Assembly (NCBI GenBank): GCA_965223905.1
Contig: CBDCXV010000009.1
Span: 288,001-352,000, forward strand
DNA: 64,000 nucleotides
DNA from: Candidatus Latescibacterota bacterium
GTDB taxonomy: Bacteria > Latescibacterota > UBA2968 > UBA8231
Direction of reading: 5' to 3'
Shown here: positions 18,745-40,416 of the stretch, one piece after another
Position numbering within the stretch: position 1 is the stretch's first letter
Layout: every line of letters starts with the position of its first letter
Made by a program: the position numbers and the translations under genes
Notes under the pieces: generated by a model
Databases searched by the model: none
Told to the model about the DNA's origin: nothing
The model's input: only the letters and a program-made list of their open reading frames with translations

Positions 18745-20178
18745 ATGAATGAAAGAACCCTCCTCAGCCTGATCACCCTCGGCGAAGGCTTCACAACGGA
18801 GTTCAAGCGCTCTTTCCCCTCCGACCTGGGCACCGAAATCTGCGCCTTCGCGAATTCCACGGGCGGCGTAATTCTGCTCGGCGTGACGAACGAAGGGGAG
18901 ACCGTAGGCATTGGGAACCACAACAAGCTGAAATCGCAGGTCCAGTCTACCGCGCGTTCGGCGGAGCCACCGATTGCGGTCGAAGTGGAATCCGCCGGCG
19001 ACGTGCTCTGCGTGACCGTGCCCGAACAGCACGGAAAGCCCTATTCCTTCGGCGGAAGGTTCTACATCCGCCAAGGCGCCAATTCTCAGCAAATGTCCCG
19101 CGACGAAATCCGGGAGTTCTTCTACAAGGAAGGACTCATTCGCTTCGACGAGACGCCTTGCCAGCGCTTCGATCTCCAGCGCGATCTGACGCCGGAAGCG
19201 TGGTCTCGATTCGCCGGGCGGACTCGCATTCCGGACGACATGGAACCCTTGACGGCGCTGGAAAACCTGCATCTTGTCGTTGATGGAAAGATGACCCACG
19301 CCGGAGCGTGGCTGCTGGCGGACGATATCACCCGGTACAGCTTGCAGGCAGGGGTGACCTGCGCCCTGCTGCGGGGGGTGACCAAGACGCACATTCTCGA
19401 TCTCAAGAACTTCACCGGCGATCTCTACTCGATCTACGAGGATTGTGTGGCCTACGCACAGGCCAAGCTGAACACGGCGCTGATGCCGCACGTTCGCGGC
19501 AGGGATGAGCGTCTGGAGCTGCCCGAGGACGCGATTCGCGAAGCATTGGTGAACGCCATCGCGCACCGGGACTATCGATCTACCGCCAACGTACAGATGT
19601 ACGTGTTCCACGACCGGTTGGAAATCGTGACGCCGGGCGGGTTGCCCGCAGGAATGCGCGAAGAGGATCTGGGCGTCAAGAGCGTGCCGCGGAACCGGTT
19701 GCTGTTCGGGATGTTTCACCGCATGGGGATGGTGGAGCAGATCGGCAGCGGAATCAGGCGCATTCGACAGGAGTGCCGCGACTACGGGGTGGCGGAACCG
19801 GTGATCGAGGTATCCGAGCACTGGGTGACCATGACCTTTCAAAGGCCGTCCGCACAAATCGGTGAGCAAGTCACCGCGCATGTCAGGGCCCAAGTCCATG
19901 CAGGGCCAGAGTCAGGGCCAGAGTCAGGGCCAGAGTCAGGGCCAGAGTCACTGGAACTGCGCGTCCTGGCGCTACTGATCGAAGAACCTCTTTCGAGATC
20001 CGCCATAGCTGATGGTTTGGGACACCAATCCGTGTCGGCCGGCCTCAACAGAGTGATCCGCAACCTGGTGCGTGACAGGCGTATTGCGTACACGGTCCCG
20101 GACAAGCCGGGCAGCAGGCTTCAGAAGTACCGGATTACGCCAGCCGGGAGATCGGCGCTCGAAGAGTCAGCCAAGTGA
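18745..20178 (+). CDS. Schlafen/AlbA_2 - HATPase_c_4 - wHTH protein, paralogue 2
   Basis: GEGFTTEFKR, ICAFANSTGG, REALVNAIAHRDY; colinear with 16142-17620. Confidence 0.85.
   Translation: MNERTLLSLITLGEGFTTEFKRSFPSDLGTEICAFANSTGGVILLGVTNEGETVGIGNHNKLKSQVQSTARSAEPPIAVEVESAGDVLCVTVPEQHGKPYSFGGRFYIRQGANSQQMSRDEIREFFYKEGLIRFDETPCQRFDLQRDLTPEAWSRFAGRTRIPDDMEPLTALENLHLVVDGKMTHAGAWLLADDITRYSLQAGVTCALLRGVTKTHILDLKNFTGDLYSIYEDCVAYAQAKLNTALMPHVRGRDERLELPEDAIREALVNAIAHRDYRSTANVQMYVFHDRLEIVTPGGLPAGMREEDLGVKSVPRNRLLFGMFHRMGMVEQIGSGIRRIRQECRDYGVAEPVIEVSEHWVTMTFQRPSAQIGEQVTAHVRAQVHAGPESGPESGPESGPESLELRVLALLIEEPLSRSAIADGLGHQSVSAGLNRVIRNLVRDRRIAYTVPDKPGSRLQKYRITPAGRSALEESAK
19901..19950 (+). repeat. 12-bp tandem repeat (cagggccagagt)x4 encoding a (GPES)4 linker
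   Basis: Read directly from the sequence. Confidence 0.9.
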
Positions 20179-22227
20179 GCCTCTCCCCCTGACAACACTC
20201 ATGCCCCAACTCGAACATATCGACGCCATCGAGAAGCGCCTCTGGGAAGCGGCGGACACGCTGCGGGCAAACTCCCCTTACGCCAGCAACGAGTACTTCC
20301 TGCCGGTCATGGGCCTGGTGTTCCTGCGCCACGCCTACAGCCGCTACCTGGCGGTCAAGGACAAAGTCGAAGCCAGCCTGCCGACCCGGGGCGGCAGGAA
20401 ACGGGCGCCGACCAGGGATGACTATTCCCGCCAGAGCGCCATCTTCCTGCGGCCCGAGGCCCAATTCGACAACCTGGTTGGCCTGCCGGACGGCGAGGAC
20501 CGCGCCAAGGCCGTCATCGCGGCGATGGACTCCATCGAGGAGGATTACCACAGCCTGCGCGGCGCCCTTCCCAAGGCCGAGTACCAGGAGCTTGACAACG
20601 ACGTTCTCGGCCAGCTCCTGCGCACGCTCAACCCCGACGAGCTGAAGCAGGTTTCGGGCGACGTCTTCGGACGCATCTACGAGTATTTCCTGACCAAGTT
20701 TGCGGATTTGAAAGCCCACGACGACGGTGAGTTCTTCACCCCCGTGTCGCTGGTCTCGCTGATCGCCCATGTGCTCGACCCCGACCGCGGCACCGTGCTC
20801 GACCCGGCCTGCGGTTCCGGCGGCATGTTCGTCCAAAGCGCCCGCACCGTGGAGGAGCACGGCAGCAGCCCTGCCGAGCGGCTTACCTTCCGCGGACTGG
20901 AAAAGAACGCCACCACCATCCGCATCGCCCGAATGAACCTCGCCGTCCACGGCCTCGAGGGGGACATCCGGCAGGCGATCACCTACTACGAGGATCCGCA
21001 TCAAATGGTGGGAAAGGCCGACTACGTGATGGCCAATCCCCCCTTCAACGTCGACGAGATCGACGCCGACAAGGTCGAGACCGACCCGCGCCTGCCGTTC
21101 GGCCTGCCCGGAGTCAACAAGAAGGAGAAGGTCTCCAACGGGAACTACGTCTGGATCAGCTACTTCTACAGCTACCTGAACGAGAAGGGGCGGGGCGGCT
21201 TCGTCATGTCGTCGCAGGCCTCCAGCGCCGGCGGCGGCGAGGCGCAGGTGCGGCGGAAGCTGATCGAGTCCGGCGACGTCGACGTGATGATCGCGGTGCG
21301 CTCCAACTTCTTCTACACCCGCACCGTGCCCTGCGAGCTGTGGTTCCTCAATCGCGACAAGCCCGGGGAGCTCCGCGACAAGGTGCTGATGATCGACGCC
21401 CGCAATGTCTATCGGAAGGTCACCCGCAAGATCTACGACTTCACCCCCGAGCAGGAGCAGAACCTGCTGGCCATCGTCTGGCTCTACCGGGGCGAAACGG
21501 CGCGCTATCTCGACCTTGTCTCCCAGTACCTGTGGGACGTTGCCGAGAATGGAAGGGCCTGTTACGAAGGAGTGAGCGTAAACGGCAGGACCTGCCGGCC
21601 CCTGCCGGAGTTCATGGAAGCCGTCGCCGCGCTTCGGAAGGAGCTGACCCCGTTCCTGAAGACCCGGCCGAGGATCGGCCCGCACGCCGAAATCTTCGCC
21701 GAGCTGGCGCAGGAGCAGAAGCAGTTCGGAGGCATCCTCAGGAGGTTCCAGGCTCGGGCCGCCAAGGCGGAGGAACAGTGGGAGCGGACTCCCGGCAGCA
21801 GGGCCGGATTGAACAAGCTGGTAGAGCGGTTCGCACCCCTGGCTGAGAGCAGCCACGACCTTGCCGGGCAGGCCGACCAGCTCTACAAGATTGCCGCGCG
21901 TCTGATCGAGACCTGCGAGCAGGGGGAGGACGCGAAGGCGAGCGACGCCTGGAACGGCCGCGGCATTACCCGGGCCCGCAAGGCCGTCGACGATGCCCTC
22001 CGGCAGGCCATCGAGCAGCTCGAACAGGTGCGCTACTTGCACCGGCAGGCGCGCTGGCTCACGGAGCGTTTCCCCGAGGGCGAGTTGCGCGACGTGGAAG
22101 GGCTGGTCAAGCTGGTGGACCGTGCCGAGATCGAGGCCAACGACTGGAGTCTGACTCCGGGCCGCTACGTCGGGGTCGCTCCAGAGGAGGAGGACGAGGA
22201 TTTTGATTTCAAGGAGGCTTTGCGGGA

Positions 22228-23802
22228 GGGTGTCTTAGCTGATTGTTACGGTTTCGGTGGTTGTTTTTAGGTTTTCTCGGTACTGCTGAAAGACCCGGTC
22301 AAGCGTTCCATTGTACAAGGCGCAGCGCAGGGCCAGAATGGCGTTGCTGTTTTCCTTATACCACCAAGCGCCCGACCGTTTCAGACGAACGTGGCCGATG
22401 AAGCGATGCGCCGATTCGATCGCCCCCGACCCGATCGGGTATCCGCCCTTGCGATGGCTGCCGAAATCGACCTGGTGCAGTCGCTTTTGCAGGTAGGTCA
22501 AGGCCGTGCCGATGGCCTCTCCGGCCTCTTCCGAGAGCGGCTGCATGCGCTGCAGACCCCAGACCACGCCGCTGCCCTCGCCGCAGAACAGGCGCGCCAG
22601 GGTCGCTTCCAGCCAATGGGCAGCACGCGCCGCATCGGCGCCGTATTGGGCCTCGGCCACCGCGTGCAGGTAGCTGCTGCAATGGTAGTAGTCGAGGATC
22701 TGACGGGCGCTCGGGAACAGCTCTTCCACCCACTTCCAGATCCACGGAGCGCCATCTCCGATGGCACACAAGCGCACCTGATCCTCCGGGATCAGCCCCG
22801 CCTCCTTGACCTGGCGCAAGGCCGCGCCGAAGGCCTGTTCGTTGCCCATCTGGTGCCAGGAGATCAGCTGCTCGATGCGCTCATCGTCTATCAGGTAGAA
22901 GCGAAAGCCCTTGGCTTCGTGGTATTCCCCCTGCCAACGCCTTCGCCGAGCCCGGCTCTTCTTGCGTCCGGGACGGGTGCCTTTGGCGGTCTGGGGACGA
23001 CTGGGCACGTCGGCCGCGTCGATGGCCAACACCACGATCGGCCGCCACTTGCGACCGGCGGCGGCTTGCGCAATGCGATCCTGGATATCGGCCGCGTCCG
23101 GACACACCTGCAGCACGTCCAACGACCCGGTCTGTTGCAGCACCTCGTGAATCACACAATCGCTCATCGACGCGTCGGTGAGCTCGTCCAACAGTTCGGC
23201 GGCGCGCCGGTGGGGCATCTCCAGCCCCAGCTTGACCCCGGCCTGCTGCACGTCCCACTGCTTGCGCTGCGCCGACAGGCCCAGGGCCTCGTCCAGCGGA
23301 TAGAACCCGTGGTGACAGCCAACGCAGTAGAAATAGGGACGCTCCAAGGTCACCGGCCCGAGCAGCGTCTCCACCGTGCGCGAGCGAGACGGGCGCGCTC
23401 GCAGCAGGCCTTTGCACTTGGGGCAGGCCGCCTCTTCCTGGGCCAGGAAATGGCCGTGGCGGCGTTCGACGAAGGCTTCCACCAAGGCCGCGGTGAGCCC
23501 GGAGCGCTCTTGAGACATCGCCGCGGTGATCTCCAGCAACGTCGGCGCACAAGATCCGCGCGCGCTCATTTGCGTCTCCACCCGATCCAGCCATTGGTCC
23601 AAGGCTTCATGCGCCCGGCTTCGAAAGCGGTCCTGACTCTGCCGCTCCTGAAAAACTTCCAGAGAGAGAATCGCACTCATCGCTCCCCTTCTTTCTGAAA
23701 TCAGGGGAGCGCGCCGCAGGGGATGCGGAAAAAGAAAGCAACTTACTGTAAAATATACACATACGCACCTGAATTGCGCTATAACAATTACTTAAGACGC
23801 CC
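22228..23802 (-). mobile_element. ISKra4-like (IS256-related) insertion sequence, copy 1, 1575 bp
   Basis: Imperfect IRs gggtgtcttagctgattgtta / taacaattacttaagacgccc; 8-bp TSD ttgcggga; transposase 22235-23680. Confidence 0.9.
22235..23680 (-). CDS. ISKra4-family DDE transposase
   Basis: CPKC/CxxC, AIDA, GDGAPWIW, LDYYH, IGSGAIES, RLKRSGAWW. Confidence 0.88.
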   Translation of the reverse strand: MSAILSLEVFQERQSQDRFRSRAHEALDQWLDRVETQMSARGSCAPTLLEITAAMSQERSGLTAALVEAFVERRHGHFLAQEEAACPKCKGLLRARPSRSRTVETLLGPVTLERPYFYCVGCHHGFYPLDEALGLSAQRKQWDVQQAGVKLGLEMPHRRAAELLDELTDASMSDCVIHEVLQQTGSLDVLQVCPDAADIQDRIAQAAAGRKWRPIVVLAIDAADVPSRPQTAKGTRPGRKKSRARRRRWQGEYHEAKGFRFYLIDDERIEQLISWHQMGNEQAFGAALRQVKEAGLIPEDQVRLCAIGDGAPWIWKWVEELFPSARQILDYYHCSSYLHAVAEAQYGADAARAAHWLEATLARLFCGEGSGVVWGLQRMQPLSEEAGEAIGTALTYLQKRLHQVDFGSHRKGGYPIGSGAIESAHRFIGHVRLKRSGAWWYKENSNAILALRCALYNGTLDRVFQQYRENLKTTTETVTIS

Positions 23803-24052
23803 TTGCGGGAGATCCACCTTGAGCTGGAAGACCTCAATGCCGAGGCAGTGGTGCTGGCGGAGAAGATCAGGAAGAACTTCGAGGAGCTGGGGGTATGAAG
23901 AAGCGAACCAACCTGTGGTCAGGCGGTTCTGGGGAGATCTTCCCGGCAATGCCCACAATAATGACCAAGCCGTCATTTAAGGTTGCTTGCACAAATCCTT
24001 TGATTGTTTGATGATGGGCAATACCAGGTAGCCTTTGGGGAGTCGAGGAGGA

Positions 24053-25270
24053 ATGAGTTGGCACGAAATCAGGCTTGGTGATGCAATCAAGGTGAAGCAC
24101 GGTTTTGCATTCAAGAGTCAGTATTTCTCTGATACCGGGGAATTCGTTGTCCTAACTCCCGGCAACTTCAACGAAGCGGGTGGATTCCGTGTGCGAGCTG
24201 GTAAGGATCGATTCTATGTGGGGGATATTCCGGAGGGGTATGTGTTGAAGGAAGGAGACCTCATCGTCGCAATGACGGAACAGGGCCCTGGTCTTCTTGG
24301 AAGTTCTGCCTTGGTTCCGGAAAGTGGGAAATACCTCCACAACCAACGTCTGGGCTTAATCCAGAATACAAAAAGCAGGATCCTGGACAAAAACTTTCTC
24401 TACTACCTCTTCAACACCAGAGAAGTTCGTGGGCAAATCAGCGCTAGCGCAAGCGGTACGAAAGTTAGACATACGGCTCCGGAACGAATTTACCGGGTCA
24501 AGATTATTGTTCCAGGTATCAAGAAGCAGCGGCGAATCGTTTCTATCCTTTCCTCCTACGACGATTTGATCGAAATCAATCGGCGCCGGATTCAGCTGTT
24601 GAAGAAGGCGGCGCGGTTGCTCTACAAGGAGTGGTTTATCCACCTTCGCTTCCCCGGACATGAGTATGTCCAGGTCAAGGACGGGGTGCATAAGGGCTGG
24701 GAGAGGAAGAGTGCCCTTGATGTGATGGATGTCATGAGTGGGGGAACCCCTAAGGTGGGTGTGCCGGATTATTGGGGTGGTGAGATTCCCTTCTTTACGT
24801 CAAAGGATACCACAGATTACCCATACGTTTTCGGAACAGAAAGAACGATTACGGAAGAGGGGTTACGTAATTGTAACAGTAGGCTTTATCCAAAGGACAC
24901 CATTTTTATTACCGCACGAGGAACAGTTGGAAAAATTAACCTCGCCCAGACAAATATGGCAATGAATCAATCATGCTATGCTCTGGTGGCCAAGCCACCG
25001 CTGGATCAGGAATTCCTGTACTTCGCACTAGAGGAAAACATCGACCAATTTCGTAGCCGTGCAGTAGGCGCGATTTTCGATGCGATCATACGAGACACTT
25101 TTAAGCTGATTCCATTTTTAGTTCCTGATAGTAGATCAATAAAAAGATTCGGAGGCGTCATATCGCCGACTTTAAAGCAAATCGACATCCTTTCTACTCA
25201 ATTAAGGAAGCTAGTCAAAGCTCGATCTATCATCTTGCCACGGCTAATTTGTGGAAAGATGGAGACATGA
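24053..25270 (+). CDS. hsdS: Type I R-M specificity subunit HsdS
   Basis: Two TRDs with conserved spacer QRRIVSILSSYDDLIEIN...LYKEWF and C-terminal ILPRLICG; GAGGAGG RBS. Confidence 0.92.
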   Translation: MSWHEIRLGDAIKVKHGFAFKSQYFSDTGEFVVLTPGNFNEAGGFRVRAGKDRFYVGDIPEGYVLKEGDLIVAMTEQGPGLLGSSALVPESGKYLHNQRLGLIQNTKSRILDKNFLYYLFNTREVRGQISASASGTKVRHTAPERIYRVKIIVPGIKKQRRIVSILSSYDDLIEINRRRIQLLKKAARLLYKEWFIHLRFPGHEYVQVKDGVHKGWERKSALDVMDVMSGGTPKVGVPDYWGGEIPFFTSKDTTDYPYVFGTERTITEEGLRNCNSRLYPKDTIFITARGTVGKINLAQTNMAMNQSCYALVAKPPLDQEFLYFALEENIDQFRSRAVGAIFDAIIRDTFKLIPFLVPDSRSIKRFGGVISPTLKQIDILSTQLRKLVKARSIILPRLICGKMET

Positions 25271-25383
25271 AGCAGGGGTACCTTTTCATCCTTTTTGCCC
25301 GCTGAATAAATAATTGCCAATCCCTGTTCCGTGGTAGGGCTGCTCAAACAGTTTTCCACCCTAATAAAGAAATCTGGAAGAAT

Positions 25384-28300
25384 ATGAGTATCAAACACAT
25401 TTTCATTTCACATGCTGCGGAGGATGGGGAAATTGCTACTGAGTTAGAAGAACATCTGCGTAATGCCGGCCATGAGACCAAGATCGACACCCAGGTACTT
25501 AGTCTTGGAGACAATGCCATTTCCTTTATGAATGATGGAATCGCGGATGCGGCTGCAGTCATTATTCTCTTCTCAGAGCATACCCCTAATGCGAAGTGGC
25601 AGAACCTCGAAATCGATGCCGCAGTTTGGAACCAAGTCGCTCAGTCTGGGGGGAGATGTATTGTCGTCCGCCTGGACGATACCCCGATACCACCTTTGCT
25701 TGGTCCAAAGGTGTATGGAATGCTAGAGAAAGGAGATCAAGAATCTCTAAGAAGGTTAGTGGAAGACATTTGCGGCGAACTATTTAGCGAACAGACAACC
25801 TCGTCGTTGGTTGCCGAGGCTTTCACACCCAACTCACAAAATCCCTTTCGACACCTTAGAGCCGAATTTTTCGAGAACCAGCCAGAGCTTCACGCAAAGA
25901 CATTCGCGCTACCAGAGGCCATAAAAGTGGGAGCGCTCGAGGATATGAAACCGTGCATTCTAGAAGGATCGAGAGGAACGGGTAAATCGATGCTATTGCT
26001 GTCGTTAAGGGCGCGCAATTTTTTACAACGGAGTCCCAGTGAAAGAAGTGCCCCCCAACGCTTCGGTTTTTACTTGAAACTTACCCGCGGGGCGATCTGT
26101 AATGCAGGGGTCCGTTTCGAGGATGATCACCTAAATTCAACAATTAACACCGACGTTCTCGTAGACGTGGGTGCCCAAGAATTGTATCTACAGATAATGG
26201 AGAGTTTGTTATCCGAACTGGTATATTGCGTCGAACACAATTTGGTCAATCGCGACGGACTTGTTGAACGGAATTTCTGCGAAGCAGCCGACGAACTGCT
26301 GTTCGAATCTAAGGGAGAAAAGCCTATTTCCTTCGTCGAATTGCAAGTCAAACTCTCCGATATGCACAAACGGCTGGCTAATTTTATCCGCCGTAAGTTC
26401 ATTTATGAGGAATCCGTCTCGGTACCGATAGCTACTCTGGACTTGGAACAACTGAAACGTATCATAGCTTTATTACGACACCACACCCCATCCCTTGAAG
26501 AGTCGATTTTTGTTGTATTGCTTGATGAGTATGAGAACCTTTTCCCATATCAGAGACGGATAGTAAATAGCCTGGTCAAACTAGGTCCTCCACATATTTC
26601 AATCAAAATTGCAAAGAAGCTTGCAAGCGGAGATATCCCAGGAACCACGACTGGGCAAGAATTACAAGAGATACACGACTATACGAGAGTACCATTGGTG
26701 TACAACCTTGAAGACACAGCGGAAAGAAAGGCCTACCATGAACTACTGCGCCACATCGTAACAAACATGGCTATGCTTGAAAGTTCCCTCTCCGTTGATG
26801 TGGATAAACTTCTCCCTCACTTTTGCGATTCCGAAGTCGATGAGTCCTTATGGATAGAAGAACTGGTTAGACTCCAAAAGATCAGCCTCGATGAATTTGA
26901 GAATTTGCCAACTAAGGAGCAGCGGGAAAAGAGAACCTACTATGGTGAAGCAGCGACGTATCGGGTCCTTCTTGGAAGGCGTGGCCGGCATGCTGAGAAG
27001 CGGTTTGCCGGGTTCAAAGAGCTCGCGCTTTTAGGATCTGGAGTTATCCGCTATTTTCAAGAATTTCTGAGTGTTGGCTACCATCTTACCTTCGGGGGCA
27101 ATTCACCGCCCAAGGGAATTCTAACAATTCCACCAGACCAACAATCCAGGGCTGTCCATATCGTCTCTCAGCATAACCTTACGACGCTCAGCAAAAATGT
27201 AGAGCGTCACGGTGAGGAGCTGCGGTATTTCCTCCTGGACCTCGGTGATTGTTTAAGGCACAAATTGCTCAAGCACACAAGCGAACCGGAGGCTGCTCGA
27301 CTGACGATAGAGGATCCTGAGATGTTGGAAAAAACCACCATGGAAACGTTGAAACATATCCTTGCGGTTGGGGAAGGAGAGGGGGTGTTTCAAACCAAGG
27401 AGGGGCTTCCTGCATTCAAGCCTAAGCACGGGTCCGATCCTCAACCCACAGAATTCAATATTTGTCGAGTTTATGCCCCTGTCCTCCAAATCAGCCCACG
27501 ACTTCGCTGGAGAACGAACGTGAAGTGCAGGCACTTACAGCGTTTCCTTGAACCTGGAAAGGGGTGTCTTAGCTGATTGTTACGGTTTCGGTGGTTGTTT
27601 TTAGGTTTTCTCGGTACTGCTGAAAGACCCGGTCAAGCGTTCCATTGTACAAGGCGCAGCGCAGGGCCAGAATGGCGTTGCTGTTTTCCTTATACCACCA
27701 AGCGCCCGACCGTTTCAGACGAACGTGGCCGATGAAGCGATGCGCCGATTCGATCGCCCCCGACCCGATCGGGTATCCGCCCTTGCGATGGCTGCCGAAA
27801 TCGACCTGGTGCAGTCGCTTTTGCAGGTAGGTCAAGGCCGTGCCGATGGCCTCTCCGGCCTCTTCCGAGAGCGGCTGCATGCGCTGCAGACCCCAGACCA
27901 CGCCGCTGCCCTCGCCGCAGAACAGGCGCGCCAGGGTCGCTTCCAGCCAATGGGCAGCACGCGCCGCATCGGCGCCGTATTGGGCCTCGGCCACCGCGTG
28001 CAGGTAGCTGCTGCAATGGTAGTAGTCGAGGATCTGACGGGCGCTCGGGAACAGCTCTTCCACCCACTTCCAGATCCACGGAGCGCCATCTCCGATGGCA
28101 CACAAGCGCACCTGATCCTCCGGGATCAGCCCCGCCTCCTTGACCTGGCGCAAGGCCGCGCCGAAGGCCTGTTCGTTGCCCATCTGGTGCCAGGAGATCA
28201 GCTGCTCGATGCGCTCATCGTCTATCAGGTAGAAGCGAAAGCCCTTGGCTTCGTGGTATTCCCCCTGCCAACGCCTTCGCCGAGCCCGGCTCTTCTTGCG

Positions 28301-29246
28301 TCCGGGACGGGTGCCTTTGGCGGTCTGGGGACGACTGGGCACGTCGGCCGCGTCGATGGCCAACACCACGATCGGCCGCCACTTGCGACCGGCGGCGGCT
28401 TGCGCAATGCGATCCTGGATATCGGCCGCGTCCGGACACACCTGCAGCACGTCCAACGACCCGGTCTGTTGCAGCACCTCGTGAATCACACAATCGCTCA
28501 TCGACGCGTCGGTGAGCTCGTCCAACAGTTCGGCGGCGCGCCGGTGGGGCATCTCCAGCCCCAGCTTGACCCCGGCCTGCTGCACGTCCCACTGCTTGCG
28601 CTGCGCCGACAGGCCCAGGGCCTCGTCCAGCGGATAGAACCCGTGGTGACAGCCAACGCAGTAGAAATAGGGACGCTCCAAGGTCACCGGCCCGAGCAGC
28701 GTCTCCACCGTGCGCGAGCAAGACGGGCGCGCTCGCAGCAGGCCTTTGCACTTGGGGCAGGCCGCCTCTTCCTGGGCCAGGAAATGGCCGTGGCGGCGTT
28801 CGACGAAGGCTTCCACCAAGGCCGCGGTGAGCCCGGAGCGCTCTTGAGACATCGCCGCGGTGATCTCCAGCAACGTCGGCGCACAAGATCCGCGCGCGCT
28901 CATTTGCGTCTCCACCCGATCCAGCCATTGGTCCAAGGCTTCATGCGCCCGGCTTCGAAAGCGGTCCTGACTCTGCCGCTCCTGAAAAACTTCCAGAGAG
29001 AGAATCGCACTCATCGCTCCCCTTCTTTCTGAAATCAGGGGAGCGCGCCGCAGGGGATGCGGAAAAAGAAAGCAACTTACTGTAAAATATACACATACGC
29101 ACCTGAATTGCGCTATAACAATTACTTAAGACGCCCCTGGAAAGAGGGCTCAAGCGATTCGAGAATTAAAGAACACTGTAGCGAAGCCCGCAAAAGACCC
29201 AGCCACACAAGAGAGTTTGGTCCTTCAACCGGGAAGACAAAAGTGA
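25384..29246 (+). pseudogene. TIR domain + ORC/CDC6-like P-loop ATPase, IS-interrupted (reconstructed ~759 aa)
   Basis: IFISHA...KWQNLEI TIR with catalytic-position Glu; Walker A GSRGTGKS, Walker B LLDEYENL; frame resumes after the IS as RAQAIRELK...GRQK-stop at 29246. Confidence 0.85.
27562..29136 (-). mobile_element. ISKra4-like IS, copy 2 (transposase 27569-29014)
   Basis: Same IRs, 1575 bp, TSD ctggaaag; one R-to-C SNP versus copies 1 and 3. Confidence 0.9.
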
Positions 29247-31776
29247 AACGGCTGCTAACCCAAGGAATTTTGCCTGATGGGGCAGTCCTAATTACATGTT
29301 CAAGCCACGAGGCCAGATGCAAAGGCCTACTTATTTCTACCCAGGGTTGGTTGCCGAGTGAAGTGAATCTCTTTCACTACGATGACGATAATCCCATCCG
29401 TGAAAAGAACCATAGCCATATGGAATCAGAGTTTCGGAAAATCGCTTCCCGGGTGACGACCCTTCAATTTACCGAAGCCGACGCAGTCAGTAGTTTGCGC
29501 GACAATATGGAAAATCTTCAGCACTCTATATACCGCTCCGACACCAAGGCTATCGTAATAGATATATCCGTTTTCACAAAAAGGCATTTGCTCATGATGT
29601 TGAGATGGCTTGATGACTATGATCTCTGGAATCCACTATATGTCGTGTATAGTGAACCAAGTGAATATTTGATTTCTGAGCACATTCCCCTCTCATTTGG
29701 ACTCGCTTCCCTTCAACAAACTCCCGGTTTTTCCGCCTGTCCAGATCTCAGTAGACCCGTGCACCTAATAATGTTTTTGGGGTATGAAGGCGATAGGGCC
29801 ATGGCGGTCTATGAACATATCCAACCAATGAAAACCACCTTGGCCGTTCCCCACCCCCCATATCGATCAGAATGGGCGGGAAGGACAGAGCAATTTAATA
29901 GAGATCTTCTGTCTTTGGTTGGAGAACAAGCCGTGCTCAAAATCGATGCACTCGATCCAGACGCCACAGACGAGACTCTCACAAATGTCCTGGGAAGTTC
30001 TGCAAGAGGCGATTTTGCGCGCATTGTCTCCCCCCTTGGAACCAAACCACAGACCCTCGGTGTCTATAACTACGTTAGGAAGGCAGAGGATCCACCAGCA
30101 ATTGTTTATGCCAGTCCGCAGCGACACAATCACGCCTTTTATTCTAGAGGATTCGGTAAGACGGGTGTCTTAGCTGATTGTTACGGTTTCGGTGGTTGTT
30201 TTCAGGTTTTCTCGGTACTGCTGAAAGACCCGGTCAAGCGTTCCATTGTACAAGGCGCAGCGCAGGGCCAGAATGGCGTTGCTGTTTTCCTTATACCACC
30301 AAGCGCCCGACCGTTTCAGACGAACGTGGCCGATGAAGCGATGCGCCGATTCGATCGCCCCCGACCCGATCGGGTATCCGCCCTTGCGATGGCTGCCGAA
30401 ATCGACCTGGTGCAGTCGCTTTTGCAGGTAGGTCAAGGCCGTGCCGATGGCCTCTCCGGCCTCTTCCGAGAGCGGCTGCATGCGCTGCAGACCCCAGACC
30501 ACGCCGCTGCCCTCGCCGCAGAACAGGCGCGCCAGGGTCGCTTCCAGCCAATGGGCAGCACGCGCCGCATCGGCGCCGTATTGGGCCTCGGCCACCGCGT
30601 GCAGGTAGCTGCTGCAATGGTAGTAGTCGAGGATCTGACGGGCGCTCGGGAACAGCTCTTCCACCCACTTCCAGATCCACGGAGCGCCATCTCCGATGGC
30701 ACACAAGCGCACCTGATCCTCCGGGATCAGCCCCGCCTCCTTGACCTGGCGCAAGGCCGCGCCGAAGGCCTGTTCGTTGCCCATCTGGTGCCAGGAGATC
30801 AGCTGCTCGATGCGCTCATCGTCTATCAGGTAGAAGCGAAAGCCCTTGGCTTCGTGGTATTCCCCCTGCCAACGCCTTCGCCGAGCCCGGCTCTTCTTGC
30901 GTCCGGGACGGGTGCCTTTGGCGGTCTGGGGACGACTGGGCACGTCGGCCGCGTCGATGGCCAACACCACGATCGGCCGCCACTTGCGACCGGCGGCGGC
31001 TTGCGCAATGCGATCCTGGATATCGGCCGCGTCCGGACACACCTGCAGCACGTCCAACGACCCGGTCTGTTGCAGCACCTCGTGAATCACACAATCGCTC
31101 ATCGACGCGTCGGTGAGCTCGTCCAACAGTTCGGCGGCGCGCCGGTGGGGCATCTCCAGCCCCAGCTTGACCCCGGCCTGCTGCACGTCCCACTGCTTGC
31201 GCTGCGCCGACAGGCCCAGGGCCTCGTCCAGCGGATAGAACCCGTGGTGACAGCCAACGCAGTAGAAATAGGGACGCTCCAAGGTCACCGGCCCGAGCAG
31301 CGTCTCCACCGTGCGCGAGCGAGACGGGCGCGCTCGCAGCAGGCCTTTGCACTTGGGGCAGGCCGCCTCTTCCTGGGCCAGGAAATGGCCGTGGCGGCGT
31401 TCGACGAAGGCTTCCACCAAGGCCGCGGTGAGCCCGGAGCGCTCTTGAGACATCGCCGCGGTGATCTCCAGCAACGTCGGCGCACAAGATCCGCGCGCGC
31501 TCATTTGCGTCTCCACCCGATCCAGCCATTGGTCCAAGGCTTCATGCGCCCGGCTTCGAAAGCGGTCCTGACTCTGCCGCTCCTGAAAAACTTCCAGAGA
31601 GAGAATCGCACTCATCGCTCCCCTTCTTTCTGAAATCAGGGGAGCGCGCCGCAGGGGATGCGGAAAAAGAAAGCAACTTACTGTAAAATATACACATACG
31701 CACCTGAATTGCGCTATAACAATTACTTAAGACGCCCGGTAAGACCTGGGTGCTAAAGAAGGCCGAAGAAAAATGA
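29243..31776 (+). pseudogene. Uncharacterised ~316-aa protein with two Rossmann/CARF-like halves, IS-interrupted
   Basis: GTGA-coupled to the upstream gene; motifs IDISVFTK and SPLGTKPQ; resumes after the IS as WVLKKAEEK-stop overlapping the next ATG. Confidence 0.7.
30163..31737 (-). mobile_element. ISKra4-like IS, copy 3 (transposase 30170-31615)
   Basis: Same IRs, 1575 bp, TSD ggtaagac; one synonymous SNP near the transposase end. Confidence 0.9.
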
Positions 31777-32951
31777 AGTTGGCAACGAGACTAGATCGCT
31801 ACCCGGGAAAAATGGTATCCAAACTGGCCCATCGCCTAGTTCATCTTTATGCCTCTGAAGCTGACTCCGTTATTGATCCCTTTTGCGGATCCGGCGCGAT
31901 CCTCGTTGCGGCTAAGCAAGCTGGAATCTCCGTTTCCGGGATTGATCTTAATCCCATCTCAGAATTGTTCTGTCGCGTGAAGATCCAACGATTTGATCCT
32001 GCTCTTGCTTTAAAACTTACCAGAACGTGGATCGCGGAGGCACAGGGAACACGCCATCCATTACCGGTTGATTGGAATAGAAAGAACTACTGGTTTACGC
32101 CGGGTACACTCAACAAGTTCGAGCGATTGAGAGCCGCGTCTAAGAATATTCCGCTCAGAAATAGCCCCGAAGGTTGGGCTGTCCTCCTCAGCTTCACCCT
32201 TGCCGTTAGGCTTTGCTCCAGAGCTGACCAGCGCAGCCCAAAACCTTTTATCTCACGGCAAGCCCGAAGTTCAAGGTCTGGCCTGCACTTCGATCCGAAT
32301 CGAGTCATCCTCGAACTGTTGGGGCAGCTTTCAGTACTCTATGGTGCCGATCAGCAAGAGGACACTCGGTTTCGTTTCGTTTGCGCCGATGTTTGCGGAC
32401 CGGGTCGTCAGTTCCGTAGTTTAGGTAAACATTCACATGCTATCACCTCTCCACCCTACATAAATGCGCAAGATTATTTCCGGAATTTTAAGCTTGAACT
32501 GTACCTATTGGAAGGAATCCTGCCCTTAAAAGTGAGTAGCCTTCGAGAACGCTTCGTAGGGACGGAGCGTGGGCAGTTGTTGGAGAAAGTACCCCAGGCA
32601 TCCATCGAGAGAGACTACGCATTGTTACCCGAACTAAGTGGTTTAAAAGCCAACTCCCCTCGGCTCTGCGCAGTTGTTCATCGATATCTTTACGATATGA
32701 GTAATGCCTTTGACGTGGTAAAAGAGACATTAGAGCACAATGCTTGCCTGGTGGTTGTATGCGGGGACAACCTCGTTGGAGGTCTTAGAATTTTGACTTG
32801 GAACGTTCTACACACGATTCTGGAAGAAAAGGGCTTCACGCTCTTCGATCGATTCAGCGATCCAATCAGCGATAGATTACTTGCTCCTAAACGGTTTGGT
32901 CATAAAGGGTTGATTAAGGAAGAAATCGTTTCTGCTTATCGTCTGATCTGA
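31773..32951 (+). CDS. Amino (N4-C/N6-A) DNA methyltransferase, alpha-type motif order
   Basis: RYPGKM, DPFCGSG (motif I) N-terminal, TSPPY (motif IV) downstream; ATGA-coupled. Confidence 0.85.
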   Translation: MKLATRLDRYPGKMVSKLAHRLVHLYASEADSVIDPFCGSGAILVAAKQAGISVSGIDLNPISELFCRVKIQRFDPALALKLTRTWIAEAQGTRHPLPVDWNRKNYWFTPGTLNKFERLRAASKNIPLRNSPEGWAVLLSFTLAVRLCSRADQRSPKPFISRQARSSRSGLHFDPNRVILELLGQLSVLYGADQQEDTRFRFVCADVCGPGRQFRSLGKHSHAITSPPYINAQDYFRNFKLELYLLEGILPLKVSSLRERFVGTERGQLLEKVPQASIERDYALLPELSGLKANSPRLCAVVHRYLYDMSNAFDVVKETLEHNACLVVVCGDNLVGGLRILTWNVLHTILEEKGFTLFDRFSDPISDRLLAPKRFGHKGLIKEEIVSAYRLI

Positions 32952-33150: not shown

Positions 33151-33562
33151 CCGGCCCCCAATTGGAGCATAGCCCGTGTGGATCCATGACAGAGAGGTTG
33201 GCAGGGTCCTGATTGTAGACGATGAACCGGCAGCACGTAATGCCTACGGCTATCCCGTCGAGGAGTTGGGTTTGGAGCCGGTTAAGATCCAGGGACCTGT
33301 TGGGGGTCCAGATTCCTTTCTAGGCCGCGTGGAATCTTCCGATGCCGTAGTCTGCGACTATCGCCTTAAGAAGCACGATTACGCCGCCTGCGATGGGGAT
33401 GTCCTTGTGGCGGAATGCTACAAGGCTGGCATACCGGCTACGCTCTGTACCACCTACACCGATGCCGGCGTTACAATCCGCCGCGACTGTCTGAGGTACA
33501 TCCCGGCTTTCCTCAAAACCAACAGTTCGGAGCCTGACGCGCTCATTGGGGCTTGGGAAAAA

Positions 33563-37128: not shown

Positions 37129-37164
37129 CGGCACTTGATCCTTCGATCCCGGTCGGGTAGGAGA

Positions 37165-40100
37165 ATGACCCCGATCCTCTATACCGAGGACACCCTCGTT
37201 CAGCAGACCACCGCCGATTACCTGGAGCAGCGGCTCGGCTGGGAGTCTATCTACGCCTACAACCGCGAGGACTTCGGCCCCACCAGCCTGCTCGGCCGTG
37301 GCTCGGACCGCGAGATGGTTCTGGAGCTGACCCTTCGTGGGAAACTTGCGGAGCTTAACCCCGGCCTGTCCGATTCCGCGTACGACGACGCCGTACGGCA
37401 GATCACCGCCGTTTCCGCTTCCCAGACCTTTGTCGCCACTAACCGTGAGAAGTACAAGCTGGTAAGGGACGGCGTGCAGGTCGCCTTTAACAACGATCAG
37501 GGCCAGCGGGAGTCGCGCCTCCTGCGCCTGTTCGACTTCGCCGAGCCGGCCAACAATCATTTCCTGTGCGTGCGCGAGCTGTGGGTGCAGGGGGATCTCT
37601 ACCGCCGCCGCGCCGACATCGTCGGCTTCGTCAATGGCCTGCCCCTGCTGTTCATCGAGTGCAAGAACATCCACCGCGACCTCAAGGCCGCCTTCGAGGG
37701 GAACTACTCCGACTACCGCGACACCATTCCCCACCTCTTCCACCACAACGCAGTGGTGATGTTCGCCAACGGCGAGAAGGCGAAGATCGGCTCCATCACC
37801 AGCCGCTGGGAACACTTCCACGAGTGGAAGCGCCTGGCCGAGGAGGAGCCGGGTGTGGTCGACATGGAGACGCTGCTCAAGGGGGTCTGCGACAAGCGCA
37901 ACTTCATGGACCTGGTGGAGAACTTCATCCTCTTCGACGATTCCTCGGGTGAGACGCGGAAGATCCTGGCTCGCAACCACCAGTTCCTCGGCGTCAACAG
38001 GGCGGTCGAAGCGGTGCGCGACCGCGAGAAGCGGCAGGGCCGGCTCGGTGTCTTCTGGCACACCCAGGGTGCCGGCAAGAGCTACTCGATGGTGATGTTC
38101 ACCCGCAAGGTGCATCGCAAGGTGGGAAGGAATTTCACCTTCCTGGTGCTGACCGACCGGGAAGATCTCGACCGCCAGATCTACAAGACCTTCGCTGGCT
38201 GCGGCGTGGTGGATCACGACCGCGACCCCTGCCGGGCGGCAGACGGAAAGCACCTCGGCCGCTTGCTGGCCGAGCACAAGTCCCACGTCTTCTCGCTGAT
38301 CCAGAAGTTCAACCTGGACCCGGGCGCCGGCTACACGATGCGCAGCGACATCGTCGTCATCACCGACGAGGCGCACCGCACCCAGTACGGGACGCTGGCG
38401 CTCAACATGCGCAACGCAATCCCCAACGCCAGTTACATCGGTTTTACCGGCACTCCGCTGTTCACCGACGATGAGATCACCCGGCGCGTTTTCGGCGAGT
38501 ACGTGTCGACCTACGATTTCCAGCGCGCGGTGGAGGACGAGGCCACGGTGCGGCTCTACTACGACGCTCGCGGCGACAAGCTGGGCGTTGCCATCGGCGA
38601 CCTGAACGAGCGCATCGCCGACAAGCTGGATGAGTTCGACATCGAGGACGTCGACGTGGAGCAGCGCCTGGAGCAAGACCTGAAGCGGGACTATCACGTC
38701 GTCACCGCGGGCAGGCGTCTCGACCAGGTAGCGCGGGACTTCGTGCAGCACTATTCCGCGGCCTGGGAGACCGGAAAGTCAATGCTGGTCTGTATCGACA
38801 AGATCACCTGTGTGCGCATGCATGCGCTGATCGAGCGCTATTGGAACGAGCGCATCGAGGAACTGGAGGAGGAGCAGAAGTTTACTGACGACGAACAGGA
38901 GGAGATTTATCTCCAGCGGCAGGTCGAGTGGATGCGGGAGACCCGAATCGCCGTGGTGGTGAGCGAAGAGCAGGGGGAGGTGGCGAAGTTCCGCAAGTGG
39001 GAGCTGGACATCACCCCGCACCGGAGGCTCATCAAGAATGGTATGGACCTGCCGGAGTCGATGCGCAGCAAGCCGCAGTTCCGCCGAAAGCAGCGGATGG
39101 CGGTCGACGAAGCCTTCAAGGCGGAGGAGCACCCGTTCCGCATCGCCATCGTCTGCGCCATGTGGCTGACCGGTTTCGACGTGCCCAGCCTCTCCACGCT
39201 CTACCTCGACAAACCGCTCAAGGCCCACACCCTGATGCAGGCCATCGCCCGCGCAAACCGGGTCAACGAGGGCAAGAACAACGGCCTGATCGTCGACTAT
39301 TGCGGCATCCTCAGGCACCTGCGCAAGGCCCTGGCGACCTTTGCCGGTACCGCCGACGAAGGTGGAGGAGGAGGCGTCGGCGGAGAGATCGATCCTGTGC
39401 AACCGGGAAAGGAGCTGCTCGCCGGCCTCGCCGAAGCGATCGCCATGGTGCGCTCTTTCCTCGAAGAACGCCGTGCGCCGCTCGACGACGTCATCCGCAA
39501 GACCGGTTTCGAGCGCAACGCGGCCATCGTGGCCTGCAAGGAAGCGGCCAACGAGAACGACGAGACCCGCAAGCGCTTCGAGGTGATCTGCCGCGAGGTG
39601 TTCAGAAAGTTCAAGGCCTGCATCAACCTGGGGGGCGTTAACGCCTACCGGGGGGATCGCGACGCCATCGACGCCGTGTACCGGAGCCTTCAGCAGGACC
39701 GCGAGCAGGCCGACATCACCGACATCATCCGTGCCCTCCACGGAGTGGTGGACGAGGCTATCGACCTGCGGCAGGAAGGCGTTGGCGAGGGTCCCCGGGA
39801 GCCGTTGGACATCAGCCTGATCGACTTCGACCGGCTCAAGCGGGAGTTCGAGGGCAGTCCCGCCAAGCGGACGACAGTGCAGTCCCTCAAGGAGGCAGTG
39901 GAGGAGAGGCTCCGGCGCCTGCTGGCCTGCAACCCGCTGCGGACCGATTTCCAGAAGCATTTCGAGGAGATCGTCAAAGAGTACAACCGGGAGAAGGACC
40001 GGGTGACCATCGAGCATACCTTCGAGGCATTGCTCAACCTCGTGAAGGAGCTGGATGCGGAGGAAAAGCGGGCCTTCAATACGGGATTGAACGAGGAATC

Positions 40101-40416
40101 GCTGGCGATCTTCGACCTTCTGCAGAAACCGGATCTCGGGGCACGCGACATCAACCGCATCAAGATGGTCTCCATGGAGCTGCTGCGAACCTTGAAAGAG
40201 GGGAAGCTCCGCGTCGAACAGTGGCGCGAGAAGGAGGCGACCAGGGCTGCGGTCAAGGGCGAGATCCAGGACTTCCTGTGGAGCGACGTAACCGGGCTGC
40301 CGCCCGACACCTACACGGATGACGATGTGCAAGTGAGAGTGGATGACGTTTTCCGTCACGTATACCGGGCCTACCCGACGGTGCCCTCCCCTTACTACGT
40401 GAGCGACGCCGCGTGA
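37165..40416 (+). CDS. hsdR: Type I restriction endonuclease HsdR
   Basis: RADIV..NGLPLLFIECK nuclease, HTQGAGKS, DEAHR, FTGTP, MWLTGFD, QAIARANR. Confidence 0.95.
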   Translation: MTPILYTEDTLVQQTTADYLEQRLGWESIYAYNREDFGPTSLLGRGSDREMVLELTLRGKLAELNPGLSDSAYDDAVRQITAVSASQTFVATNREKYKLVRDGVQVAFNNDQGQRESRLLRLFDFAEPANNHFLCVRELWVQGDLYRRRADIVGFVNGLPLLFIECKNIHRDLKAAFEGNYSDYRDTIPHLFHHNAVVMFANGEKAKIGSITSRWEHFHEWKRLAEEEPGVVDMETLLKGVCDKRNFMDLVENFILFDDSSGETRKILARNHQFLGVNRAVEAVRDREKRQGRLGVFWHTQGAGKSYSMVMFTRKVHRKVGRNFTFLVLTDREDLDRQIYKTFAGCGVVDHDRDPCRAADGKHLGRLLAEHKSHVFSLIQKFNLDPGAGYTMRSDIVVITDEAHRTQYGTLALNMRNAIPNASYIGFTGTPLFTDDEITRRVFGEYVSTYDFQRAVEDEATVRLYYDARGDKLGVAIGDLNERIADKLDEFDIEDVDVEQRLEQDLKRDYHVVTAGRRLDQVARDFVQHYSAAWETGKSMLVCIDKITCVRMHALIERYWNERIEELEEEQKFTDDEQEEIYLQRQVEWMRETRIAVVVSEEQGEVAKFRKWELDITPHRRLIKNGMDLPESMRSKPQFRRKQRMAVDEAFKAEEHPFRIAIVCAMWLTGFDVPSLSTLYLDKPLKAHTLMQAIARANRVNEGKNNGLIVDYCGILRHLRKALATFAGTADEGGGGGVGGEIDPVQPGKELLAGLAEAIAMVRSFLEERRAPLDDVIRKTGFERNAAIVACKEAANENDETRKRFEVICREVFRKFKACINLGGVNAYRGDRDAIDAVYRSLQQDREQADITDIIRALHGVVDEAIDLRQEGVGEGPREPLDISLIDFDRLKREFEGSPAKRTTVQSLKEAVEERLRRLLACNPLRTDFQKHFEEIVKEYNREKDRVTIEHTFEALLNLVKELDAEEKRAFNTGLNEESLAIFDLLQKPDLGARDINRIKMVSMELLRTLKEGKLRVEQWREKEATRAAVKGEIQDFLWSDVTGLPPDTYTDDDVQVRVDDVFRHVYRAYPTVPSPYYVSDAA

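Follow-up and report, generated by a model that had tools for sequence, protein, structure and literature searches.

What did the insertion sequences interrupt in the low-GC block that lies inside a type I restriction-modification (R-M) locus of a Candidatus Latescibacterota bacterium, and what would the interrupted genes do in genomes where they are intact? We analysed a window of 64,000 nucleotides from this genome (contig CBDCXV010000009.1, positions 288,001 to 352,000), for which a preliminary description had proposed that two insertion sequence (IS) copies mask a three-gene candidate defence system. The three genes are a real and conserved operon that encodes a TIR domain joined to an ORC/CDC6-like ATPase (g1), a tandem CARF protein (g2) and an amino-methyltransferase (g3). 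To judge from its sequences, this trio is apparently a widespread defence candidate of unusual logic, in which a CARF protein occurs without a cyclase and a methylase without a nuclease.

Because different 8-bp direct repeats flank the second and third IS copies, the intervals that the preliminary description had proposed for removal (27562-29144 and 30163-31745) are exact, each of 1583 bp and comprising one IS and one target-site duplication (TSD). Excising both in a script yielded open reading frames (ORFs) at 25384..29246 (759 amino acids, aa), 29243..31776 (316 aa) and 31773..32951 (392 aa), in which consecutive genes overlap by 4 nt at a GTGA (position 29243, g1/g2) and an ATGA (position 31773, g2/g3). 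The gene lengths expected for g1 and g2 were thereby reproduced to the residue, as was the picture of three low-GC genes joined by overlapping stop and start codons, with a GC content of 0.48 for the trio and 0.635 for the whole window. The restored sizes match those of intact homologues, which measure 757-761 aa for close relatives of g1 and 316 aa for most homologues of g2, so the trio genes did not decay before or after the insertions. Ordinary ORF calling does split the locus, as had been anticipated.

The 1575-bp element is present in three copies of identical orientation, as determined by repeat finding and base-by-base comparison, and these differ pairwise at 1 or 2 positions (1 between copies 1 and 2, and 2 of 1575 between copies 2 and 3; Table 1). 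An ORF listing of 20-40 kb of the window showed the same 481-aa minus-strand ORF three times, and its product matches the NCBIfam model NF033572 (transpos_ISKra4) with 248.8 bits against a cut-off of 205. The ends of the element, GGGTGTCTTAGC and GGGCGTCTTAAG, are imperfect inverted repeats, so that the transposase, the terminal inverted repeats and the TSDs of an ISKra4-family element are all present. Because each copy has its own 8-bp TSD, the three copies represent three separate transposition events. Copy 1, which the preliminary description had not mentioned, disrupts the 3′ end of hsdM, from which a 747-aa gene product is restored upon excision of the element with one TSD, and because g1, g2 and the adjoining hsdM are each cut by an IS, neither the cassette nor the R-M system works in this genome. 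The genome (7.92 Mb) holds 14 full copies of this IS, three of which lie within 9.5 kb (22228-31737). By rough arithmetic of our own, the chance of so tight a triple under uniform insertion is approximately 5e-4, which points to selection for inactivation, to local hopping or to a preference of the element for low-GC targets such as this island.

To place the trio among its relatives, contigs of one genome per species were searched with a g2 profile. This search returned 43 loci (numbered here with the prefix L), 39 of which have a full-length g2, and the presence of g1 and g3 in these 39 was scored by tblastn with the window's own pieces. A lack of co-occurring homologues had been named as the finding that would speak against the system, and the homologues do co-occur, with the whole trio in order and on one strand at 34 of the 39 loci, drawn from nine or more phyla of bacteria and archaea. 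A same-strand g1 precedes g2 in 36 of 39 (all except L006, L010 and L036, the last being a contig of 3.3 kb whose edge holds an inverted piece of g1), and g3 lies downstream in 37 of 39 (all except L035 and L039). The bacterial records are labelled Latescibacterota, Nitrospirales, Acidobacteriota (Vicinamibacterales, Bryobacterales and Holophagales), Verrucomicrobiota (Verrucomicrobiae), Planctomycetota (Brocadiia and Planctomycetes), Hydrogenedentota, Betaproteobacteria, Spirochaetia and Chloroflexota, and the archaeal records Methanoregula, Bathyarchaeia, Methanomassiliicoccales, Thaumarchaeota and Thermococci. Identities among the homologues fall to 25-35%. The tight coupling that suggested a translationally coupled operon recurs among these loci: NTGA overlaps join g1 to g2 in 21 of 36 loci and g2 to g3 in 21 of 37, and the remaining gaps are shorter than 100 nt.

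Several of the related copies are damaged as well. ISL3 transposase insertions split g1 at different codons in L005 (7543-9246) and L014 (7258-8892), and a 283-aa ORF of no known family splits it in L013 (7621-8472). L016 combines a frameshift in g1 with an early stop codon in g2, and in L006 and L010 g1 is absent while g2 survives. g3 lies in two frames in L008 and L010 and is fragmentary in L006. Frameshifts in long-read metagenome-assembled genomes (MAGs) may be sequencing errors, but insertions are not; g1 has been hit by independent insertions in four genomes (the window, L005, L014 and L013) and lost in two others, a bias that fits g1 as the costly part of the operon.

In g1, Pfam recognises TIR_2 at residues 6-126 (4.3e-19) and the ORC-CDC6-like family PF24389 at residues 153-708 (3.9e-50; 171.6 bits against a cut-off of 27), and NCBIfam gave only sub-threshold matches for this protein, as it did for g3. 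Among 26 aligned g1 homologues, PF24389 was detected in all 26 and TIR_2 in 24, and NACHT was limited to a weak partial match in a single protein. The Glu of WQNLE, which had been assigned to the catalytic position from the motif KWQNLE, aligns with the conserved Glu of solved bacterial TIR domains and is kept in at least 90% of the homologues; the Walker A (G-[SG]-R-G-[TS]-G-K-[ST]-M) and Walker B (LLDE-[YF]-E) motifs, read as intact in the preliminary description, are invariant in 26 of 26. We modelled the last 332 residues of g1 with AlphaFold2 (AF2), obtaining a predicted local distance difference test score (pLDDT) of 83.3. A fold search with this model returned weak matches to the lids of AAA+ proteins (Z of at most 5.9; MgsA, TnsC, ORC and Cdc6) and to the winged-helix domain of ORC2 (Z 4.3). 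This region of approximately 330 aa is helical and free of repeats, and its model fits, tentatively, an ORC/Cdc6-type lid followed by a winged helix.

g2 belongs to no family in Pfam or NCBIfam, a sequence-profile search of the PDB returned nothing meaningful (best E 0.32), and a protein atlas search returned only clusters of hypothetical proteins. It does match nine PADLOC profiles labelled 'CARF6--CARF_CARF_CARF', with a best value of 7.1e-27. The AF2 model of an intact homologue with 85% identity, built from a 33-row alignment, reached a pLDDT of 90.3 and a predicted template modelling score of 0.91. In an exhaustive VIA-align scan, its best fold match was Can1 (6sce_A; Z 14.2, root-mean-square deviation (rmsd) 3.4, 232 residues across both halves), a type III CRISPR nuclease that carries two CARF domains in a single chain. 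Csm6, Can2, Csa3 and Card1 (Z 10.6-11.7), VC1899 and Cad1 followed at Z 10-12, many CARF proteins scored 8-12, and the SAVED domains of Cap5, Cap4 and CalpL scored 8-9 with approximately 195 residues aligned. The tandem CARF-like nature proposed for gene 2 is thus confirmed at the level of fold, and the model indicates that g2 is a CARF pseudo-dimer in one chain whose 316 aa comprise two CARF halves and no effector domain. Foldseek matches to the C-terminal domains of cation-chloride cotransporters in the PDB were discarded as generic tandem-Rossmann similarity (TM of at most 0.29, rmsd approximately 17).

Conservation in g2 peaks in the loops that follow beta1 and beta4 in both halves (SSHE-x-RC, D-I-S-x-F-T-K-R-H, FLGYEGDR and PLGTKPQ), which form the lining of the ligand pocket in CARF proteins. 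The family is large: clustering at 50% identity gave 3185 clusters at E of 0.001 or below, 1558 at 1e-10 and 165 at 1e-30, nearly all of 310-340 aa. The same genome encodes a second, distant tandem-CARF-like ORF with 26% identity to g2 (contig C9, 630802-631557, minus strand; L044 9776-10786), beside which Pfam detected no PF24389 ATPase and near which lie a DDE transposase and an hsdM-like fragment.

The complex of g2 with residues 140-759 of g1 was predicted in three runs, with interaction prediction scores from aligned errors (ipSAE) of 0.62, 0.77 and 0.70 (median 0.70) and 0.00 for the best of three controls. Of 80 solved complexes 58 attain that mark, as do 2 of 110 mismatched pairs, a calibration that holds only roughly here because we used our own alignments. 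At least 80% of the contacts are common to the three runs, and the partner pLDDT is 79 or higher. In the predicted interface, a helical insert of the ATPase (g1 residues 229-244, 270-278 and 318-342) packs against the inter-domain face of g2 (residues 118-125 and 152-173).

For g3, Pfam reports N6_N4_Mtase (4.4e-12) and PADLOC reports MTase_II, in agreement with its earlier assignment as an SPPY-type amino-methyltransferase. All 24 homologues examined keep motif I (DPFCGSG) and motif IV (TSPPY-x-NAQDY) unchanged, and with them g3 contains both the AdoMet motif I (FxGxG) and the motif IV ((D/N/S)PP(Y/F)) of beta-class (PF01555) N4C/N6A methyltransferases. The top matches of a PDB profile search were DNA amino-methyltransferases (TTHA0409, a DNA N4C enzyme, DpnA, PvuII, MboIIA, CcrM and RsrI), and relative to TTHA0409 (2zie) the segments of g3 match in circularly permuted order, with motif I before motif IV. 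g3 is accordingly nearest to the DNA N4C/N6A enzymes, and its predicted substrate is DNA. We rejected the alternative of an RNA methylase: the tRNA m2G enzymes match more weakly, and sister classes of the trio hold an unambiguous C5 DNA methylase in the equivalent operon position.

These sister classes were found by searching 168 genomes of the window's phylum with PF24389 (E of 1e-10 or below), which matched in 19 genomes; the 19 neighbourhoods were fetched, and CARF6-like genes were identified in them with hidden Markov models (HMMs) from our own alignments. In 15 of these loci a CARF6-like gene directly follows the ATPase (14 found by HMM and L082, where a greedy choice of ORFs masked a g2 that is present, the locus being the same contig region as L001), in two it is fused to the ATPase, and in two it was not found (L079 and L091). 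Both fusions, L088 (6506-9874, 1122 aa) and L089 (6120-9776, 1218 aa), are preceded by a g3-like methylase, and a database protein of 643 aa (P0171) fuses CARF6 to an N6_N4 methyltransferase. The ATPase-CARF pair is thus the core of a wider class in which the remaining partners vary. A g3-like methyltransferase and PRTase-CE accompany the pair in L074-L076, and PRTase-CE and an MTS-type methyltransferase do so in L073. In the HD-CE class, the pair occurs with a C5 DNA methylase and HD-CE (L077, L078, L080 and L083, and L079 with no CARF called). Kinase-fused ATPases occur with a g3-like methyltransferase, CARF and a DUF1156 methyltransferase in L084 and L085, both with an SNF2 helicase; they occur with CARF next to hsdR in L090. 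More distant relatives of g2 (L040-L043) lie behind TIR-less PF24389 ATPases, with methylases and ThyX, dUTPase- or dCTP-deaminase-like, PRTase-CE (L043) or radical-SAM genes as neighbours. A methylase accompanies nearly every class, of the g3-like, C5, MTS or DUF1156 type, the C5 class being the one with an unambiguous DNA methylase. The loop motifs of the CARF protein are common to all effector classes: E-x-R after beta1, [IV]-D-[IV]-[ST] after beta4, G-[YF]-[ED] and, within the second half, P-x-[GSN]-[TS]-K.

The trio fits into this class as its fused-TIR variant. As in the PRTase-CE and HD-CE systems, the window has an ATPase of the PF24389 family with intact Walker A and B motifs, a CARF6-like gene directly downstream and a DNA methylase in the operon. 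It differs from them in that neither the window nor the trio loci contain a separate PRTase-CE or HD-CE gene, that position being taken by a TIR domain that forms the N-terminal part of the ATPase protein, and in that its methylase is a permuted SPPY amino-methyltransferase and not a C5 enzyme.

Two further features of the wider class were observed. In L086 (5653-10570) and L087 (4942-9845), the gene next upstream of a PF24389 ATPase fused to a protein kinase, and of its CARF partner, belongs to the Druantia DruA family, with GmrSD beside L086; this is possibly a DruA-linked variant that has perhaps not been described. ThyX (Thy1) genes recur at the 3′ ends of the operons in L034 (5180-5794), L041 (8541-9554), L074 (4949-5929), L075 (10055-11002) and L080 (4952-5683), and dUTPase- or dCTP-deaminase-like genes are present in L042 and L043. 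The working model given below offers no explanation for this recurring link to pyrimidine deoxynucleotide metabolism.

With slightly better than even confidence, we propose that the locus carries a defence cassette of three genes that moves horizontally and that IS copies have recently inactivated, so that it is dead in this genome. Its intact counterparts would work as an ATPase switch that is coupled to methylation, regulated by the CARF protein and able to fire a TIR NADase. In such a system, g3 would methylate host DNA at N6-A or N4-C, and g1 would be an ORC/Cdc6-type AAA+ switch whose N-terminal effector is a TIR NAD+-hydrolase. The pseudo-dimer of two CARF domains formed by g2 would sit on the helical insert of the ATPase as the ligand-sensing subunit. 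The cue of an infection might be a ligand resembling a nucleotide that binds in the CARF pocket, DNA that lacks methylation or is damaged and is recognised by the C-terminal region of the ATPase, or both; upon this cue the ATPase would oligomerise and bring the TIR domains together, NAD+ would be destroyed and the infected cell would stop, resulting in abortive infection.

We treat the ATPase and the CARF protein as a unit because their genes are adjacent, their frames overlap, they are fused at two loci and they are predicted to form a complex. The preliminary description had also considered that the TIR might generate a signal. Because the ATPase-CARF core also pairs with PRTase-CE, HD-CE and kinase modules, and predicted nucleotide-destroying enzymes occupy the place of the TIR at other loci, we favour the TIR as the output (an NADase) over the TIR as the source of a signal, and the persistence of the CARF motifs in the TIR-less classes favours the same assignment. 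Because nearly all of these operons include a DNA methylase of one family or another, DNA methylation is probably part of the mechanism, either as a mark of self or as the source of a danger signal. The earlier picture of an ATPase-gated TIR with a nucleotide-binding partner and a DNA-modification arm is therefore retained insofar as it concerns the domains, the conserved operon and the CARF fold, and the part that has to be dropped is its suggested role as a guard of the R-M system.

Several observations weigh against this model. In L008 an intact g1 stands beside a g3 in two frames, which is awkward for a strict scheme in which the methylase protects self unless the frameshift is a sequencing error of a long-read MAG, and L035 and L039 lack g3. 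The CARF motifs are constant across the methylase families, which argues against a base-specific methylated ligand and leaves the link between methylase and sensor unexplained, and a look through the cassette and through 114 ORFs flanking it at 31 loci found no cyclase or other dedicated signal synthase. Because the fold matches of the g1 C terminus are weak, DNA binding by g1 is no more than possible; the g1-g2 score expresses the confidence of a model built on our own alignments; and with its many invariant polar residues g2 could be an enzyme such as a ring nuclease instead of a pure sensor. The patchy distribution is the sole pointer to mobility of the cassette, since a scan of viral contigs with the g2 profile gave 10 pattern matches of which none was confirmed, and tblastn against plasmids gave one distant match (22% identity) at the end of a record with uninformative context. 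Finally, a full-text literature search, outside which the two likeliest computational catalogues lie, returned no paper that describes or tests the trio and no named system for it.

A further reading places the emphasis on the sensor: the ATPase and the CARF protein would be a cyclase-independent immune sensor in which the CARF domains bind a nucleotide from the host's methylated DNA, or another infection-derived nucleotide, in place of a dedicated second messenger, and license whichever metabolite-destroying effector is attached (TIR, PRTase-CE, HD-CE or kinase). We consider this version possible but rather unlikely. Reading of nucleotides from methylated DNA by the CARF protein would account for the constant company of a DNA methylase, although the constancy of the CARF motifs noted above argues against a ligand defined by one methylated base. 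Passages of a recent preprint report experimentally that m6-dAMP from degraded host DNA activates PUA-Cal-HAD and that such sensors are linked to N6-A methylases without restriction enzymes (bioRxiv 10.64898/2026.01.15.699771), and by analogy we hypothesise that the ligand of g2 may be a methylated nucleotide. As portrayed in those passages, the PUA-Calcineurin-CE-HAD systems resemble the trio in combining a sensor for modified nucleotides, linked to the methylome, with an effector that depletes a metabolite, and differ from it in having PUA and not CARF as the sensor, phosphoesterases instead of TIR, and no AAA+ ATPase (same preprint). If this version were true, it would define a methylome-reading CARF branch of immunity that is distinct from CRISPR type III, CBASS and Thoeris.

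We think it unlikely, to a slightly greater degree, that the trio is chiefly a selfish addiction module in which the methylase is the antidote and the TIR-ATPase, with the CARF protein, is a poison fired by lapsed methylation, so that self-maintenance would be the main effect and phage defence a side effect. The patchy occurrence across phyla in unrelated contexts would suit such a module, as would the integrase, ParA/RepB or phage genes beside some copies (L005, L007, L014 and L022) and a GC content foreign to the host (0.48 vs 0.635). The decay biased to g1, with L006 and L010 keeping g2 and fragments of g3, likewise resembles the decay of R-M systems in which the nuclease is lost first. However, addiction does not explain the conserved ligand-sensing CARF subunit, 11 of 31 loci lie in defence islands, and the apparently broken g3 of L008 stands beside an intact g1.

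Less probable again is a Thoeris-like relay, in which the TIR of g1 would make an NAD+-derived second messenger and the CARF protein would bind it and relay it, perhaps to the methylase or the ATPase. Weak scores of the g1 TIR with ThsB-type profiles speak for this reading (Pfam ThsB_TIR with 22.1 bits against a cut-off of 21.2; PADLOC ThsB with 2.6e-4 and 1.5e-3, including ThsB1; NCBIfam ThcB4). In addition, nucleotide messengers are known to be bound by CARF and SAVED domains, g2 has such a fold, and TIR and CARF are encoded in one operon. However, the CARF loop motifs are the same in classes without a TIR, so the CARF ligand cannot generally be a TIR product; in addition, g2 has no effector domain, and the place of the TIR is held in other classes by PRTase-CE and HD-CE, which are named conflict effectors. 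The last alternative, a non-immune module for methylation-linked replication or epigenetic control that comprises an ORC/Cdc6-like initiator, a nucleotide-sensing regulator and a methylase, with the TIR as an interaction domain, is very improbable, because although ORC/Cdc6 ATPases are replication initiators, the g1 C terminus has weak fold matches to ORC, Cdc6, DnaA and clamp-loader lids and many loci lie amid housekeeping genes, the catalytic Glu of the TIR is conserved, conflict-effector enzymes replace the TIR, the family is sporadic (19 of 168 genomes of the phylum), copies are repeatedly inactivated and known defence genes are frequent neighbours.

Compared with known systems, the trio shares with Thoeris a TIR with a catalytic Glu encoded beside a Rossmann-type sensor of small molecules, but the cassette lacks ThsA (a SIR2 or transmembrane effector with a SLOG or Macro sensor), its TIR shares one polypeptide with an AAA+ ATPase, the operon includes a methylase and the sensor-ATPase core also occurs without a TIR. 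With Can1, Can2/Card1 and the SAVED effectors it shares the CARF fold of g2, arranged as two halves per chain as in Can1 and with conserved loop motifs; unlike the CARF and SAVED effectors of type III CRISPR and CBASS, g2 has no fused nuclease or other effector, neither Cas10 nor a CD-NTase is encoded nearby, and its partner is an ORC/Cdc6-type ATPase. The STAND/NLR-like TIR ATPases (Avs, bNACHT and TIR-NLR) likewise carry an N-terminal TIR on an oligomerising P-loop switch of the ORC/Cdc6-STAND assemblage, but the ATPase of the trio is PF24389 and not NACHT or NB-ARC and has no C-terminal repeat sensor; sensing is apparently delegated to a separate CARF subunit, and a methylase belongs to the cassette. 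BREX, through PglX and BrxC/DUF499, also pairs a DNA methylase with an ATPase of the ORC/Cdc6 clade in the absence of a classical restriction nuclease, the kinase-class loci L084 and L085 have a DUF1156 methylase and an SNF2 helicase, and some trios lie beside BrxL or DUF1156/DUF499. In contrast to BREX, the cassette is without PglZ, BrxA, BrxB, BrxC and BrxL (for PglZ and BrxC there was no Pfam or PADLOC match), its methylase is from another family, and TIR and CARF are present.

The trio lies between hsdS and hsdR as originally described, with approximately 4 kb of other genes between g3 and hsdR. hsdS is directly upstream of the trio in the window, L001 and L003 only, the latter two being Latescibacterota of the same taxonomic family as the window, and the remaining 29 of the 31 examined loci are in unrelated contexts. 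This nesting is therefore a single inherited arrangement and not a rule, and because only three related loci are in a type I R-M system and most copies have no R-M neighbour, a role in guarding R-M is not borne out. The GC content of hsdS (0.479) is as low as that of the trio, while that of hsdM and hsdR is 0.63-0.65; hsdS and the trio may have arrived together. Because hsdR directly follows g3 in L003, the block between them in the window represents an extra insertion in the same hotspot. It contains ORFs at 33176-33589 and 35042-35539 and, at 35678-37128, a DUF6932 gene (PADLOC candidate PDC-M63A, 5.1e-14) with an overlapping 298-aa ORF of no known family. Upstream of hsdM lies a gene that joins Schlafen/AlbA_2, HATPase_c_4 and Fic-like_C domains (18745-20178), and in L001 a gene of this architecture follows shortly after the trio.

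In the 11 loci mentioned above, the trio has known defence genes as immediate neighbours: hsdS in L001 and L003, a BsuBI/PstI R-M system in L002, a 1160-aa methyltransferase with a helicase in L004, DUF1156 with DUF499 in L012, BrxL in L022, a Pycsar-type TIR and a ThsA-Macro gene in L024 (the latter a separate neighbouring system), a PglX-like methyltransferase and GmrSD in L026, HEPN-MNT in L030, GmrSD in L032 and a MORC-like ATPase in L038. Genes of mobile elements adjoin four loci, as given above, and the other trio loci are in housekeeping neighbourhoods.

Table 1. Coordinates of the interrupted trio, the IS copies and the type I R-M genes in the window
Feature	Position	Strand	Description and evidence
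hsdM	20072..22227	+	3′ end truncated by IS copy 1, remainder 23811-23896; Pfam N6_Mtase 1.3e-73, HsdM_N; PADLOC MTase_I 1.3e-241
IS copy 1	22228..23802	-	ISKra4; transposase ORF 22235-23680; TSD TTGCGGGA at 22220-22227 and 23803-23810
hsdS	24035..25270	+	Pfam Methylase_S 9.8e-33; PADLOC Specificity_I 1.4e-69
g1 part A	25384..27561	+	residues 1-726; TIR and ORC-CDC6-like AAA+ ATPase; Pfam, Walker A/B, TIR Glu
IS copy 2	27562..29136	-	transposase ORF 27569-29014; TSD CTGGAAAG at 27554-27561 and 29137-29144
g1 part B	29145..29246	+	final 33 codons and stop; in frame after excision; C-terminal tail aligns with homologues
g2 part A	29243..30162	+	residues 1-306 plus 2 nt; predicted single-chain tandem CARF; PADLOC CARF6, AF2 model, Can1 match
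IS copy 3	30163..31737	-	transposase ORF 30170-31615; TSD GGTAAGAC at 30155-30162 and 31738-31745
g2 part B	31746..31776	+	final 10 codons and stop; restored 316 aa equals the usual homologue length
g3	31773..32951	+	intact; predicted amino-methyltransferase; DPFCGSG near N terminus, TSPPY near residue 225
hsdR	37135..40416	+	Pfam HSDR_N, SWI2_SNF2, T1RH-like_C; PADLOC REase_I 7.3e-159

The components of the trio have curated models, in particular Pfam PF24389 and PADLOC CARF6. To judge from the profile names, the CARF6 label probably comes from the CARF classification of Makarova et al. in Nucleic Acids Research (NAR) in 2020, and the PF24389/PRTase-CE/HD-CE systems reportedly go back to Nicastro, Burroughs, Iyer and Aravind in NAR in 2023, perhaps with the TIR form among them. 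PF24389, PF24390 (PRTase-CE) and PF24391 (HD-CE) are consecutive Pfam accessions in the vocabulary of one laboratory, which suggests, without proving it, that the ATPase family was defined in the same work on conflict effectors. Passages of the preprint cited above use 'CE', a term of the Aravind laboratory, as the abbreviation of conflict effector and credit it to Nicastro et al. NAR 2023 (bioRxiv 10.64898/2026.01.15.699771). An excerpt of another paper mentions that TIR is fused to some ORC/Cdc6 conflict ATPases (PMC10853773), and the passages of related papers describe other ORC/Cdc6 systems and not the trio. The wider PF24389 class has therefore probably been catalogued computationally, and the TIR-form trio may already be known as a prediction. 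The preliminary statement that no named system holds this trio agrees with our search, which found none, and its claim to novelty was overstated.

The case shows that defence operons masked by IS copies escape ORF calling and that three IS insertions in one 9.5-kb island can silence two systems together. Intact homologues exist in cultured strains of Prosthecobacter fluviatilis (L018) and Planctomicrobium sp. (L022). If the proposed model is true, three questions would become testable: which ligand the CARF protein binds without a cyclase, why a methylase is needed without a nuclease, and how an ORC-like ATPase drives TIR assembly. CARF sensors would then not be confined to CRISPR type III and CBASS signalling, the large family of stand-alone tandem-CARF proteins would be the regulatory subunit of an ORC/Cdc6-type switch, and this switch, tied to DNA methylation, would fire interchangeable effectors that destroy NAD+ or nucleotides.

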